From: Alphaproteobacteria bacterium
Lineage (GTDB): Bacteria > Pseudomonadota > Alphaproteobacteria > Rs-D84
Reading direction: 5' to 3'
NCBI GenBank assembly: GCA_017502865.1
Contig: JAFVUD010000002.1
Coordinates: 7,238 to 71,237 of the forward strand
Length of the DNA stretch: 64,000 nucleotides
How positions within the stretch are numbered: the stretch's first letter is position 1; every line of letters starts with the position of its first letter. This document shows positions 38,755-63,412 of the stretch, piece by piece. The position numbers and the translations under genes were made by a program. Under the pieces are notes generated by a model. The model did not search any database. It saw nothing but the letters and a program-made list of their open reading frames with translations, and was not told where the DNA came from.

Positions 38755-38982
38755 TTTTTGGGTTCTCGTCCGGTGCCCCATTGCCAAAATAAAAAACCAC
38801 CATGCGGTGGTTTCTTATTTGTGGTGGGGACACAGGGACTGTAAATTCCCATGGTCGTTTACACTCCATGGGCCCCTTTCGCTTCGCCCCGAACCCTTTT
38901 TGGGTTCTCGTCCGGTGCCCCATTGCCAAAATAAAAAACCACCATGCGGTGGTTTCTTATTTGTGGTGGGGACACAGGGACT
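38755..38982 (-). repeat. 86-bp perfect direct repeat containing tRNA-Lys 3' end, with 56-bp spacer
   Basis: 38755-38840 identical to 38897-38982. Confidence 0.92.
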
Positions 38983-39039
38983 CGAACCCTGGACCCAATG
39001 ATTAAAAGTCATTTGCTCTACCAACTGAGCTATGTCCCC
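38964..39039 (-). tRNA. tRNA-Lys(TTT)
   Basis: GGGGACA..aatga-ct-TTT-aa-tcatt..GGTTCGAG..TGTCCCCACCA. Confidence 0.97.
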
Positions 39040-54235: not shown

Positions 54236-54313
54236 GGCGGATATAGCTCAGTTGGTTAGAGCGTTGGTTTGTGGTACCAAATGTCGCCGGTTCGAGTCCG
54301 GTTATCCGCCCCA
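54236..54313 (+). tRNA. tRNA-His(GTG) with G-1:C73
   Basis: G-GCGGATA..ttggt-tt-GTG-gt-accaa..TATCCGC-C-CCA. Confidence 0.96.
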
Positions 54314-54518
54314 TTATAAAACGTCCCTGTTGGGGCGTTTTTTAATTTTGGGCGGTTCGGACGAGAGCCGCAGGTTCGGAACGTCAGTTGGCGAGAACGA
54401 GCATTGGCGAAGTTCAAGCCTTACGTAGTGAAAGGGGCCCATGGAGAGAAACGACCATGGGAATATACAGTCCGGTTATCCGCCCCATTATAAAACGTCC
54501 CAATCGGGGCGTTTTTTA
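54295..54518 (+). repeat. tRNA-His 3' end + terminator duplicated around a 124-bp spacer
   Basis: agtccggttatccgccccattataaaacgtccc....ggggcgtttttta at 54295-54344 and 54469-54518. Confidence 0.9.
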
Positions 54519-54625
54519 TTGAAAAATTTGGTGGTTTGTGGTATAATACCTGGGTTCAGCGGACGACATTTGGTCGTCTTTTTTATTGCCCGCAATTGCG
54601 GGTGTTTTTTATGGAGATTTTTATT

Positions 54626-55129
54626 ATGAAATTTAGTGAGAATGGTATTAAATGGTTAAAAAAATTGGAAGATTCCGTCGTGGTTCGTGAAAGACACATT
54701 ATCTATGATGATGCCACAGGTAAACCGGTGCCGGTGGGGGTGCCATTGCCGGTGGGTGCAACAATTGGTTATGGGCATTTGATAAAACCGGGTGAAGATT
54801 TTAAAAGCGGAATTACAGAACACCAGGCGGTTGAATTATTACGGTCTGACATAGCCACAGCAGAACGTGCGGTACAAGACAATATTACAGCACAAATGTC
54901 GCAAAACCAATATGATGCACTGGTATCTTTGGCATACAACATTGGTGTGGGTGGTTTTAAAAATTCTACGGTTGTGAAATATATAAACAATCCAAATTTT
55001 CACAGTAATATTTATCCATGTCTGGAATCTGCATGGAAAGCGTGGAAACGAAGCCAGGGGAAAGTATCACAGGGTTTAATCAACCGCAGACAAAAAGAGT
55101 GGGACCTGTATGCCCGGGGGATATACTGA
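54626..55129 (+). CDS. Phage-type lysozyme (GH24)
   Basis: FSENGI..LK.LE, IYDD, TIGYGH, QNQYDALVSLAYNIG, GLINRR..E. Confidence 0.9.
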   Translation: MKFSENGIKWLKKLEDSVVVRERHIIYDDATGKPVPVGVPLPVGATIGYGHLIKPGEDFKSGITEHQAVELLRSDIATAERAVQDNITAQMSQNQYDALVSLAYNIGVGGFKNSTVVKYINNPNFHSNIYPCLESAWKAWKRSQGKVSQGLINRRQKEWDLYARGIY

Positions 55130-59742: not shown

Positions 59743-60972
59743 TTAGATTCCTGATACGCTTTCAATTGCAACCATCTGGGCGATTGGGGCAATGTATTTT
59801 AATTCGGCATCGCTGTGCAATGATATTGGTTCAATCACACCACGGCGGGATAATATCTGCAAACCACGTTCGCATAATGGGCGGATGAATTCGTGCAGCA
59901 ATCGGCCATATGTCGCCCCCAGGATTCGCATCATGTCTGAATTGCGGGCCATAATTTCGGTGGCGGTCATTTCTTTTTCACTTAGCAATCCCAGACGGTC
60001 TGCCAATAATGCATGGCGGATACGTTCACGCAGATCTTTAAGGATAATTTGTGAAACATCAAAGTCTGCACCACTGGCCAATGGGGTCAGGCCAGATGAA
60101 CCGACCGCTTTGGGGATAATCGCACCAGGGGTCAGGTTGATGTTATTCAGGTTGATAACACCATCATCGTCGGCCTGCCATATGCCAGATACGGCGATGG
60201 TTGCATTCTTTAACACCAATTCAACGACTTTGTTCGCGGTTTTTATGTCTGGCAATGCACGCAGCACTGGGCCACGACCGTACAATTCACCAGATACAAC
60301 CGACCAACGGAATATCAGGTATGGATTCGTTTCAAATGTGCCGGTTGCAACGATATTGTTTTCAAATTCACCACCAACATCCAGCCATGCGGTAAAGTCA
60401 CATCCAACCAGACTTTGTACCAAACGCAATGGGGTTTCTGGATTTTGTTTAATCGTATCACGCAGGCCCACCGGTGGTGTCCATGTTGGATATTTGGCCA
60501 TGACTTCGTGGGCGGGCATGGTTGCTGTGTGAAAGACGGCATTCGGTAAAATCGCAATGTCGTTCATCGGGATAGATGTAAATGTAAATGCAGATGATGC
60601 ACCAATTGGATTTTCAGCCATAAACAAACAGGCCGTTCCCAGAACGACTAAATCCATATAGCACTGGTGAATGGTTGTATAAAAATTTGAATCATTCAAA
60701 TTCGCACGCAATGCGTCTGTGGCAATCTGGGCATCGGGTGATTCCAGACTTTCTGGCACCAGATTCAGCCATAATGATTCAGGTGGTGTCAGCAATGTGT
60801 ACAATGATGCCGCCAGATTGTCTGCTGCATCGGCGGCGGTGGCATCAAACAGGGTTGCAGATTCATCATCGGCCGTTGGCATTGTATAGCGGCGGGCCGA
60901 TTCCCATCTGGAAATCCACGGGGCACGAATGTCCAATGCGTGGCGATACATCTGGGGCAAGTTTTGTTGCAT
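59743..60972 (-). CDS. Podovirus-type portal (head-tail connector) protein
   Basis: FDATA, LAASL, SNFY, DLVVLGTA, RW....GELYGRGP, MTATEI, LG..YGRL..E. Confidence 0.9.
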   Translation of the reverse strand: MQQNLPQMYRHALDIRAPWISRWESARRYTMPTADDESATLFDATAADAADNLAASLYTLLTPPESLWLNLVPESLESPDAQIATDALRANLNDSNFYTTIHQCYMDLVVLGTACLFMAENPIGASSAFTFTSIPMNDIAILPNAVFHTATMPAHEVMAKYPTWTPPVGLRDTIKQNPETPLRLVQSLVGCDFTAWLDVGGEFENNIVATGTFETNPYLIFRWSVVSGELYGRGPVLRALPDIKTANKVVELVLKNATIAVSGIWQADDDGVINLNNINLTPGAIIPKAVGSSGLTPLASGADFDVSQIILKDLRERIRHALLADRLGLLSEKEMTATEIMARNSDMMRILGATYGRLLHEFIRPLCERGLQILSRRGVIEPISLHSDAELKYIAPIAQMVAIESVSGI

Positions 60973-60996
60973 ATTAAATACTCCTTTGGTTGTTTT

Positions 60997-61845
60997 TTAG
61001 ATTTGAAAATTTGTATTTGCAGAATATGTGCGGGCGGTTGAACCCAATGGGTGGACGGTTATCGGCGGACATGAAATCGCACCGGCAACCGCATCCAGGC
61101 CATCGTCGTGCCCCACCCCACCCATTGGCGACCAACCCAACATTTCTGAAAACAGTGGGGTGGATGCCAGGTGGGCATGGGCATACAGGTGGCCAGATGA
61201 CAACAATGGTTCAATCGCATCCAAAATGCGGTCTGATTTATTGCGGGTGTTAATAATCTTGTGAACATAGATGTTCGCACCACGATTACTGGCGGCATCA
61301 CGCATAATTTCAGGTAATGCGTTTCCAATGCCGTTCGTTTCGATTGATATACGGCGAATGTTGTGTTGCATCATAAAATCCAGAACCATTTCACACTGGT
61401 GCATTAATGGGTGCGTATCGTTATCGTCAACGTTCATGTACAATATGTCATGAATGAACACATTGCGATTGTGGTCATCACGGTATATCAAAACACACAC
61501 ACTGTCGTCAGATTTGCGGCGACCGCTGGATGGGTCCCAATACATGGAAACGCCTGTTATTAATTGCCCATCCAGCCGGGCAGAATGTAAATCAAACACC
61601 GATTCGTATATTTTTAGCCCACCAGGATCCAAACGAATGCGATCAGGCGGCACAAATTCCAACAGCATTTGTGCAGAAAAGTGCCGGTGACCGACCGATT
61701 GACGCATTGTTTCGATACGACCTGGGGAAAACACTTCGGGCCAGACAGAATTCCCATCGGGGTCCAACACCGGAATCTTTAATGCCCGAAATCCGCCCAA
61801 AAAAGGCGTTGAAAAACGAAAATTTTTATATACTATATTTGACAT
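60997..61845 (-). CDS. Terminase large subunit C-terminal nuclease domain (no ATPase domain)
   Basis: WPE.F, F.AQM, WDPS..D.S, IETNG, K..RI, HDDGLDA; no Walker A/B in ORF. Confidence 0.8.
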   Translation of the reverse strand: MSNIVYKNFRFSTPFLGGFRALKIPVLDPDGNSVWPEVFSPGRIETMRQSVGHRHFSAQMLLEFVPPDRIRLDPGGLKIYESVFDLHSARLDGQLITGVSMYWDPSSGRRKSDDSVCVLIYRDDHNRNVFIHDILYMNVDDNDTHPLMHQCEMVLDFMMQHNIRRISIETNGIGNALPEIMRDAASNRGANIYVHKIINTRNKSDRILDAIEPLLSSGHLYAHAHLASTPLFSEMLGWSPMGGVGHDDGLDAVAGAISCPPITVHPLGSTARTYSANTNFQI

Positions 61846-63412
61846 GGACTTTACTCCCAAAACTTTGCCAACAAATCTTGAAGCAGAACAGGCGATTCTG
61901 GCGGCGGTGTTGATGAACAACCGTGCGTTGGAACGGGTGTCTGAATTTCTGCGGGCGGAACATTTTTCGCATCCTGCACACCAGGAAATTTACAAGTTGG
62001 CCGAACGTCAATTCGCAGCCGGTATCCCATTTGATATTATTACCGCCAAGACATACCTGGAACAGCAGGGAACACTGGAATCTGTGGGCGGGGTCGATTA
62101 TTTGACACAACTGTCCAGTGCCGGTGCAACTGTTGTGAACGTTGAACAGTGGGCACGGTGTGTGTACGAAAACGCACAAAGACGTGATTTGATTAACCTG
62201 GCCCAGGATATTATGGATGGTGCGTTTGTCGAAGATCTGGAAAACCCGGTGACCCGACAAATCGAGATGGCGGAACAAAAACTGTTCGATATGGCGTCCA
62301 AGGGTACGTCCGAACGTGATACAGTTTCTATTGCAACCGCATTGCAGGCCGCATTGGCAGAAGCAGAAACAGCATATAAAGCAGATGGACAATTATCTGG
62401 GTTGACAACAGGGTTGACGGCACTGGACCAATCAATCAGTGGGCTGCACCATTCCGATTTGATTATTATTGCGGGACGTCCAGCGATGGGTAAAACCACA
62501 CTGGCGATGAATATGGCGTTTAATGCCGCAAATGCAATTTATCATGGGCGGGCAAATAAAAATTACAAGGGTGCAGTTATTTTCTTTAGTTTGGAAATGT
62601 CACATTCACAGTTGGCAACACGTGTGCTGTCGTCCCAGGCCAAGATTTCAGCATCGTCTATTCGTGAAGGTAAAATTACAGACGAAGATATGCTGAAACT
62701 GACACAGTACGCAGAAATTATCAGTAAATTACCATTGTGCATCGATGACTATCCAGGGATGAGTGTTCCAATGATGCGAACACGTGCACGTAAAATTGCA
62801 CGTAAATATGGTGGGGTCGCATTGATTGTTGTTGACTATCTGCAATTGATGACATCACCAGGTGGCAAACACAATGACAATCGTGTTCAGGAAATTTCCG
62901 AAATTACCCGTGGACTGAAAATGCTGGCCAAGGAATTGGATGTGCCGGTTATCGCACTGTCCCAGTTGTCACGTAGTGTTGAACAGCGTGATGATAAAAG
63001 ACCACAGTTGGCAGACTTGCGTGAATCTGGTTCTATTGAACAGGACGCTGACATTGTTATGTTCACGTACCGTGAAGAATACTATTTACAGAATCGTAAT
63101 CCGTCTGAACGTATTTCAAATACAACCAACAATGCAATGGTTGAATCATGGCAAAAACGTTATGAACAATCCCGTGGCAAGGCTGATATTATCATTGGCA
63201 AAAACCGTCATGGACGTCCAGAAACAGTACGCACAGCGTTCTTGGGCGATTACAGTTTGTTCGACAATCTGCCAGATGATATGGAAGTGCGTGGGGGCAA
63301 TCCATTTGATGATGCCGCACCACCACCGGTGCCTGCGACCAGTTTGGGTGATGACGAAGTGGCACCAACGCCAATCGACATTGATGAAATCCCAGATGAT
63401 TTGCCATTGTAA
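61844..63412 (+). CDS. dnaB: Replicative DNA helicase
   Basis: AEQAIL, AGRPAMGKT, FSLEM, VDYLQL, ALSQLSR, DLRESGSIEQDAD, KNRHG. Confidence 0.98.
   Translation: MDFTPKTLPTNLEAEQAILAAVLMNNRALERVSEFLRAEHFSHPAHQEIYKLAERQFAAGIPFDIITAKTYLEQQGTLESVGGVDYLTQLSSAGATVVNVEQWARCVYENAQRRDLINLAQDIMDGAFVEDLENPVTRQIEMAEQKLFDMASKGTSERDTVSIATALQAALAEAETAYKADGQLSGLTTGLTALDQSISGLHHSDLIIIAGRPAMGKTTLAMNMAFNAANAIYHGRANKNYKGAVIFFSLEMSHSQLATRVLSSQAKISASSIREGKITDEDMLKLTQYAEIISKLPLCIDDYPGMSVPMMRTRARKIARKYGGVALIVVDYLQLMTSPGGKHNDNRVQEISEITRGLKMLAKELDVPVIALSQLSRSVEQRDDKRPQLADLRESGSIEQDADIVMFTYREEYYLQNRNPSERISNTTNNAMVESWQKRYEQSRGKADIIIGKNRHGRPETVRTAFLGDYSLFDNLPDDMEVRGGNPFDDAAPPPVPATSLGDDEVAPTPIDIDEIPDDLPL

Follow-up and report, generated by a model that had tools for sequence, protein, structure and literature searches.

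Organisation of the tRNA-Lys locus

The window, i.e. the whole stretch of 64,000 nt that was analysed, carries an intact tRNA-Lys(UUU) gene at 38964-39039 on the minus strand (ARAGORN; Rfam tRNA model, 77.5 bits). A repeat search of the window revealed an 86-nt direct repeat at this gene, and its copies at 38755-38840 and 38897-38982 (spacing 142) are 100% identical, which confirms the perfect duplication claimed in the initial annotation. Each repeat copy is composed of the final 19 nt of tRNA-Lys, from A58 to the terminal CCA, and 67 nt of trailer. Tandem Repeats Finder gave no entry for the tRNA-Lys repeat because there are fewer than two copies; in the assembly 1.6 units stand in tandem, an exact number that could be an artefact.

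All features of the unit lie on the minus strand and are described here in tRNA orientation. The tRNA gene ends with the first copy of the 19-nt tRNA-end repeat, B (tRNA nt 58-76, 38964-38982, from the repeat search), with which the right copy of the 86-nt repeat begins; this copy (38897-38982) covers B, the terminator and the unit start. The trailer and terminator T follow at 38929-38963 (terminator scan; stem 38938-38950, then a U run), and the unit itself begins 42 nt past the tRNA gene. Its first element, X5 (38910-38921), was detected by local alignment to the reverse complement of tRNA nt 49-72 and is a degenerate inverted copy of the T-stem and the acceptor 3' strand, assigned as the 5' strand of a closing stem P1. 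At J1/2 (38908-38909) the letters GA replace TC, the exact complement of G57-A58, as read from the parsed inverted copies. The P2 hairpin (38891-38907; alignment and fold) contains first an inverted and then a forward copy of the T-stem 5' strand and the start of the T-loop (GAACCC / GGGUUC). A short P3 and a conserved purine-rich junction (..GCGAAAGGGG) occupy 38873-38890 and were delimited by the invariant columns of the core alignment. The P4 hairpin (38848-38872), defined by compensatory variation across 84 distinct P4 sequences, and J4/1 (AAUUUAC, 38841-38847; sequence reading and core alignment) complete the unit up to the point where J4/1 directly abuts A58 of B' (38822-38840). B' is the second copy of tRNA nt 58-76 and, according to repeat search and fold, provides the 3' strand of P1 and an NCCA tail. 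The terminator scan placed the second terminator copy, T', at 38787-38821 (stem 38796-38808). Finally, the repeat search assigned 38755-38786 to the truncated start of a second unit (spacer, X5, GA, P2 5' strand and loop), where the left 86-nt copy ends.

The 40-mer cassette that had first drawn attention lies at 38841-38880 (minus strand) and abuts the second tRNA-Lys end copy without a gap. Its cccatgg/ccatggg stem is real and corresponds to the variable hairpin P4 of the larger unit.

DNA of the window was present in animal-gut metagenomes of 9 studies among public runs. Contigs of three public DNA runs differ from the window by a G-to-T change at position 38854 in the P4 loop; thus, strain variants of the unit exist. 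Within the tRNA-Lys region, DNA contigs of public runs end at 38784 and 39083. One RNA-library contig with a variant joint from 38758 to 38886 was too weak to use.

A related unit behind tRNA-His

The tRNA-His(GUG) gene (54237-54313, plus strand; ARAGORN) is followed by a terminator at 54314-54349 (terminator scan; stem 54318-54341) and, 36 nt past the gene, by a unit at 54350-54468 that comprises X5, P2, a long P3, P4 and the junction (covariance model R1, see below, 78.1 bits). Sequence comparison identified behind it a 19-nt copy B' of tRNA-His nt 58-76 (54469-54487) and a second terminator copy (54488-54521) whose loop differs from that of the first, all on the plus strand. The last 39 nt of the unit (54430-54468) differ from the 40-mer at tRNA-Lys by one 1-nt indel and two or three substitutions. 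By BLASTN the two loci share 93% identity in a 45-nt and 90% in a 51-nt alignment (E ~4e-12 for the 889-kb genome), and a strict ungapped cassette pattern matched solely the Lys copy, with 0 matches in 100 shuffles. In both loci A58, which lies 19 nt from the 3' end, is the first position of the tRNA-end copy. A near-identical cassette common to tRNA-Lys and tRNA-His, and duplications that begin at the identical T-loop point, as the initial annotation had them, were therefore both verified.

Directly behind the tRNA-His unit, the stretch 54519-55129 holds a phage-type lysozyme gene (Pfam Phage_lysozyme, 3e-31) together with its near-consensus promoter-like site at 54519-54547, and two terminator-like hairpins lie between this site and the start of the lysozyme gene. 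Apparently the same lysozyme gene stands behind tRNA-Lys(UUU) at the loci L044, L045, L058 and L061 of the genus.

Architecture of the unit and fold of the sense strand

The cassette makes up only the 3' third of a unit of 100-140 nt (~105 nt at tRNA-Lys). In tRNA orientation the general order is tRNA, terminator, 5' arm, GA, P2, variable P3, conserved purine-rich junction, variable hairpin P4, a short junction ending in AC, tRNA nt 58-76 and a second terminator. Nt ~49-72 of the same tRNA recur as a degenerate reverse complement in the 5' arm plus the first P2 strand, and its nt 49-58 recur in forward direction as the second P2 strand. The 5' part of the unit is thus tailored to each tRNA, whose own T-arm and acceptor strand it carries in inverted form. 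Over 85 instances the median local score of the 5' arm was 16 for the cognate tRNA versus 12 for non-cognate tRNAs. In the 45 of these 85 instances where the inverted copy could be strictly parsed, the complement of G57-A58 was altered every time and the exact TC occurred in none; its replacements were GA (22), GC (9), TT (5), GAA (4), AA (3) and ATTC (2). Units of the Pro type showed no inverted copy by alignment. By eye, a nested pair of inverted and forward T-loop copies, again with the GA mismatch, could be recognized within the long form of P3.

Pairing in P4 is retained across many sequence types. Among 84 distinct P4 sequences, the five pairs beside the invariant CCC/GGG comprised 297 Watson-Crick, 23 G.T and 2 A.C combinations, with a further 93 unpaired, mostly in internal loops. 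Since G.T combinations are so much more frequent than A.C, the fold belongs to the tRNA-sense strand, either as RNA or as single-stranded DNA. On this strand the unit appears, from folding models, to be designed as a four-way junction of P1 to P4. P1 would form between the inverted acceptor/T-stem copy and the direct copy of nt 58-76, which leaves a free NCCA tail like that of a tRNA acceptor end. P3 and P4, the family-specific core, emerge from the T-loop position, with nt 57/58 on one side and the copied A58 on the other.

In minimum free energy (MFE) folds, the units of Arg(UCU), His and Glu(CUC) formed the four-way junction, with 10-13 bp of closing pairing between arm and tRNA copy and with the NCCA tail free. 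Six more units, Lys included, were folded and depart from it; in the Lys unit part of X5 pairs with B', without a full four-way junction. The lack of a clean junction in the Lys fold and of a strict inverted copy in 40 of the 85 instances counts against the reading as a TLR-type unit that is preferred below.

A scan of the Lys and His loci detected no promoter-like site inside the unit, which has terminators on both sides. When all unit classes were compared with 4227 Rfam models, nothing besides tRNAs came near its gathering score; a few rows below threshold overlap tRNA genes or terminators, none of them the unit core. A known ribozyme class was considered for the junction and dismissed for want of fit (letters compared by eye; Rfam negative).

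Occurrence in the source genome and in related genomes

The source assembly (G000) has 889 kb in 6 contigs, 44 tRNA genes and an estimated completeness of 78%. Units stand behind 8 of the 44 tRNA genes, namely those for Lys(UUU), His, Ser(GGA), Ser(CGA), Arg(UCU), Arg(ACG), Tyr and Cys. Seven of these units have a core of class A and the Cys unit has another core; the tRNA-end copy matches at 19 of 19 nt in seven units and at 16 of 19 in the Tyr unit. The Arg(ACG) unit was found by covariance model and is split over two contig ends: G000:C5:1-210 (reverse complement) and G000:C1:1-260 overlap by 120 nt inside it. Probably the contigs C5 and C1 are adjacent, and the assembly breaks at these repeats.

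With the covariance model R1, built from 35 cores, a match was obtained for 91 of the 108 genomes examined in the genus (Candidatus Enterousia-type gut Alphaproteobacteria). Of 14 genomes from the family's other genera 5 matched, and of 29 from the order's other families 3. The exact core pattern was found in 10 of 25 genus genomes and in none of 16 genomes of other families. A scan with one genome per species gave matches almost only in 'Candidatus Enterousia' and gut Alphaproteobacteria MAGs from ruminants and other animals; the handful of matches in other phyla are likely due to chance. Of the 149 parsed core instances, 107 have a tRNA gene at most 600 nt upstream on the same strand, and 23 tRNA species are represented. 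In 78 of these 107 instances the 19 nt equal the end of the tRNA. Of the remaining 42 instances, most are found where a contig or locus ends, and a few are chance matches.

At least two more core classes are held in the same tRNA-specific frame at the genus loci L029, L033, L045, L054 and L067. One of them reads ..GGGUUCGAC AAUGAGUA .. GUCAGGAAUG .. GCGAGGG. Some units of this set have shorter tRNA-end copies of 13 or 16 nt, and their core classes gave no Rfam match.

The perfect 86-nt repeat, the breaking of short-read contigs at this place and the overlapping contig ends in the sister unit at tRNA-Arg(ACG) might raise the suspicion of an assembly artefact or of chance similarity. As units with diverged repeat copies are found in many independent assemblies and shuffled sequences gave no pattern matches, such an explanation has next to no probability, and its reach is limited to the exact number of tandem units at tRNA-Lys.

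Turnover of units at orthologous loci

Filled and empty sites were both found at the orthologous tRNA-Lys(UUU) loci of the genus genomes: 12 of 29 sites are filled (two of them cut by contig ends) and 17 of 29 are empty. The filled sites combine one tRNA-specific 5' arm with at least three cores (class A in its short or long form, class B and class C). Across units the types of P3 and P4 combine in many ways; the modules have therefore been reshuffled. Double units are stacked at L009, L027, L030, L029 and L033.

At L044 and L045 one terminator type follows the intact tRNA-Lys, and behind the tRNA-end copy stands the terminator that is native to the empty locus L058, with the same lysozyme gene downstream. 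Such a layout is what an insertion at nt 57/58 would leave if it came with a tRNA end and a terminator of its own. It does not show that the units arose by insertion, because the empty sites are equally well explained by deletion between the direct repeats. Over evolutionary time, units have come and gone at tRNA loci, have been stacked in tandem and have had their modules reshuffled one by one. Host recombination via the repeated tRNA end and the terminator would be the likely route. Turnover proceeds with no dedicated enzyme in evidence, and mobility is unproven.

The initial annotation had proposed that one small mobile or scaffold sequence inserts at different tRNA genes and regenerates them. 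What stands of this proposal is that the tRNA is intact, that a shared module is joined to A58 of different tRNAs and that units come and go; the 40-mer, in turn, proved to be not the element but the last hairpin and the junction of the unit. Integrative elements are well known from tRNA genes, along with gene-less CIMEs, and their tyrosine integrases include a class with a T-loop sublocation. Like these elements, the units repeat the 3' part of the tRNA directly at both ends, keep the tRNA intact, leave filled and empty sites and are stacked. A miniature element of the CIME type would be a small circle with its own tRNA 3' end and terminator that is integrated at the T-loop by a tyrosine recombinase acting in trans, so that the native end is displaced downstream. 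The topology of L044 and L045, the terminator of the copy that is native in L058, the filled and empty tRNA-Lys sites, the stacked units and the perfect direct repeats all fit such an element. Unlike integrative elements and CIMEs, however, the units measure only 0.13-0.2 kb, have no integrase, contain an inverted copy of the target and conserve a strand-specific fold, which double-stranded att sites do not need. Additionally, the 23 tRNA species with tailor-made flanks count against an element of this kind, and deletion between the repeats could just as well have produced the empty sites. Together with the recombinase content of the genomes given below, these points make a CIME-like origin unlikely in our view.

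Enzymes sought in the source genome and its relatives

The statement that the unit has no enzyme gene in cis was borne out. For G000, two tyrosine recombinases were detected, best matched by the XerC and XerD models, and G023 (93% complete) has five or more units and only two recombinase matches. A cognate integrase in the element or in the genome, as expected for a CIME, was thus not found in G000 (78% complete). Crossover at the T-loop by a tyrosine integrase, which the initial annotation had drawn on, is not supported: this genome has only an XerC-like and an XerD-like recombinase, and the integrase islands found in relatives use the anticodon loop.

Units lying 0.9-5 kb from a tRNA gene (L157, L160, L176, L115, L074, L154 and L135) were taken as candidates for the autonomous version that had been postulated. 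The cargo of L157, L176, L115, L074 and L135 is without a recombinase. L135 has several kb of cargo directly upstream of the unit, with large ORFs and a methylase-like ORF (by eye); there was no tRNA within the 8-kb locus and no recombinase gene in the stretch read. In L157, several kb of ORF cargo without a recombinase in the stretch read lie between tRNA-Gln and the unit.

The islands of L160 (tRNA-Met) and L154 (tRNA-Asp), both in Enterousia-type MAGs, encode Arm-DNA-bind_3 and Phage_integrase domains, and L160 also has HTH_17 and a DUF3800 gene. The right end of both islands is a 45-nt tRNA copy that starts in the anticodon loop, and the unit lies behind the displaced tRNA end. Because the islands crossed over at the anticodon loop, upstream of a unit that has stayed attached to the displaced tRNA end, their integrases are unrelated to the unit and were rejected as its enzyme. 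Instead of an autonomous version, L160 and L154 hold separate integrase islands upstream of an older unit, and integrases of this type do not favour a CIME-like origin either. Extra integrases of ~400 aa occur in G016, G021 and G024, with no tRNA or unit in the flanks examined.

In the window, the stretch 59743-61920 between recG and dnaB contains a phage portal gene (Head-tail_con, 5e-79) along with a short RNaseH-like fragment of a terminase. This stretch is a remnant of a prophage or gene-transfer agent, and no integrase is found nearby.

The strand specificity of the fold would also suit an element that moves as single-stranded DNA or under RNA guidance, be it of the IS200/IS605 type, an attC- or CTX-like substrate of XerCD or an IS110 system with a bridge RNA, in which the inverted arm would be the guide to the tRNA gene. 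Together, the inverted and forward target copies look like a folded imitation of the target duplex; ..TTAC is a frequent ending of the junction, and XerC and XerD are both present. Three further enzymes of such systems did not turn up: the Y1 transposase (PF01797) was found in none of 5 element-rich genomes and IS110 DEDD (PF01548) in none of 61, and the TnpB domain PF07282 scored over threshold in none of 61 genomes. The junction letters moreover vary (TTAC, TTTAC, ATAC, CAGAC, TATAC), and action of Xer proteins on T-arms is without support. This class of explanation is therefore considered very unlikely. REP/BIME sequences and the palindromic elements derived from IS200/IS605 depend on HUH (Y1/RAYT) enzymes. 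Like the units, they are small, structured, protein-less and intergenic and lie behind genes or terminators; they differ in having no copy of the end of the neighbouring gene, and their Y1 enzyme is missing from the 5 genomes mentioned.

A non-autonomous retroelement would explain the inverted arm as the complement of a tRNA 3' end, comparable to a primer-binding site, and the copy from A58 as a product of reverse transcription of the tRNA. The arm is indeed complementary to the 3' part of the tRNA, A58 is the constant start of the copy, none of the 45 parsed inverted copies has the exact complement of G57-A58, and G000 has one reverse transcriptase. This sole enzyme, however, is of the AbiP2 defence type (PADLOC, 6e-157; G000:C2:5056-6519, corresponding to L038 910-2376, minus strand). 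AbiP2-type reverse transcriptases occur in 3 of 61 genus genomes, with a 99% identical copy in G016 and a 49% relative in G061, versus R1 matches in 91 of 108. A link between this enzyme and the units was rejected on these counts, and a retroelement is hardly credible.

Comparison with TLRs of E. coli

Background on the tRNA-linked repeats (TLRs) of E. coli was taken from Stenum et al. 2021 (PMC8144298). The repeats have been known since 1978 and are described there as having 'no known function'; the earlier works cited there are Egan & Landy 1978, Rudd 1999, and Bosl & Kersten 1991 and 1994. [quoted passage not shown] The authors link the repeated end to 3' processing. In the Enterousia genomes the units likewise stand behind a stable-RNA gene, end with a 19-nt identity to its 3' end and occur in tandem.

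We read the tyrT-tyrV locus of E. coli K-12 directly, and the E. coli comparison rests on this locus out of the 22 TLRs. It contains four units. In each, an inverted copy of the tRNA-Tyr T-arm and acceptor strand shows GA for TC and is followed by a forward copy of T-stem and T-loop, an insert and a final stretch equal to tRNA-Tyr from A58 onwards (19 nt). The annotated rttR RNA extends from 8 nt past tyrV to the CCA of the first copy. The same stem closes the structure of the Rfam family RtT (RF00391), whose model gave the four E. coli units, used as control, 133-138 bits.

The likeness between the Enterousia units and the tyrT TLRs (RtT/RttR; 178-bp repeats) extends over many features. Both lie directly behind the tRNA in the same operon, with a partial last tandem unit; both have the 19-nt end from A58, the closing stem formed by an inverted copy, GA at G57-A58 and the forward T-stem/T-loop copy before the insert; and both are protein-less. 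In contrast to the E. coli repeats, the Enterousia core (P3/P4, ..GCGAAAGGGGCCC..GGGAAU..AC) remains below the RtT threshold: the best score of RF00391 in the source genome was 18.8 bits (E 0.18, full-length, Ser(CGA) unit), versus a gathering threshold of 45 bits. The reverse comparison of R1 with the four E. coli units gave 5-13 bits, weak but in register. Unlike E. coli TLRs, the Enterousia units have a terminator on each side and are polymorphic between species; within one genus they go with 23 tRNA species, and their cores fall into at least three or four unrelated classes. With the RtT model below threshold and no family detected by cmscan at the loci, it is not shown that these units and the E. 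coli repeats share an ancestor, and the likeness may be convergent. Judged by sequence comparison, the Enterousia units would fall under the definition of TLRs and share the tyrT design, and they form a separate sequence family.

According to Stenum et al. 2021 (PMC8144298), RrA, RrB and RrF are rRNA-linked TLRs between the dual terminators of rrnA, rrnB and rrnD. They resemble the Enterousia units in their position between two terminators and carry an 18-bp copy of the upstream stable-RNA 3' end; they differ in being linked to 5S rRNA and in binding Hfq and CsrA via GGA motifs, and 19 tRNA-linked TLRs are scored there as CsrA non-binders. Our literature search found no account of such units outside enterobacteria. 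A 2026 preprint on bacterial tRNA mimics was set aside, as its abstract concerns other RNAs.

Interpretation

In our judgement the locus probably represents 1.6 copies of a TLR-type unit, i.e. a protein-less structured module whose read-through transcript would probably be trimmed in a tRNA-like manner. We assign the units to a new TLR family because their design matches that of the tyrT TLRs with their RtT/RttR RNA. [quoted passage not shown] Enzymes that process the ends of tRNAs and stable RNAs may then cut it to a stable small RNA ending in CCA. Read-through is an assumption here, since the first terminator at tRNA-Lys has a good hairpin and a U run and is identical to the second.

Counting against this reading, some features are more reminiscent of a selfish mobile element than of an RNA gene with a housekeeping role: units present or absent at orthologous sites, foreign terminator types beside the tRNA, stacking of units and shuffling of modules. 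It is a quite unlikely, speculative thought that TLR-type units, rather than being passive local duplications, are one ancient, self-propagating class of RNA-structured elements with the antisense arm as a programmable guide. In terms of design, the antisense arm to the 3' third of the tRNA, never perfectly matched at G57-A58, and the forward copy split at A58 by the core would then, just as speculatively, belong together. The route, again a rather doubtful one, could be copying onto tRNA genes by RNA-templated or single-strand-templated recombination with host enzymes. With as little confidence, the RNA might instead sense or sponge tRNA 3' fragments or misprocessed tRNAs through strand displacement of the interrupted cis strand.

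With the TLR-type unit as the preferred reading, the design of the E. coli tyrT repeats, with its inverted arm, GA mismatch, split at A58 and 19-nt tail, recurs in a distant, genome-reduced lineage. The Enterousia clade offers a far richer data set for it, with hundreds of units, 23 tRNA species, filled and empty sites, shuffled modules and covariation. Reduced genomes shed useless DNA, and the abundance of the units therefore argues either for a function in tRNA processing or for efficient spreading without an enzyme of their own.
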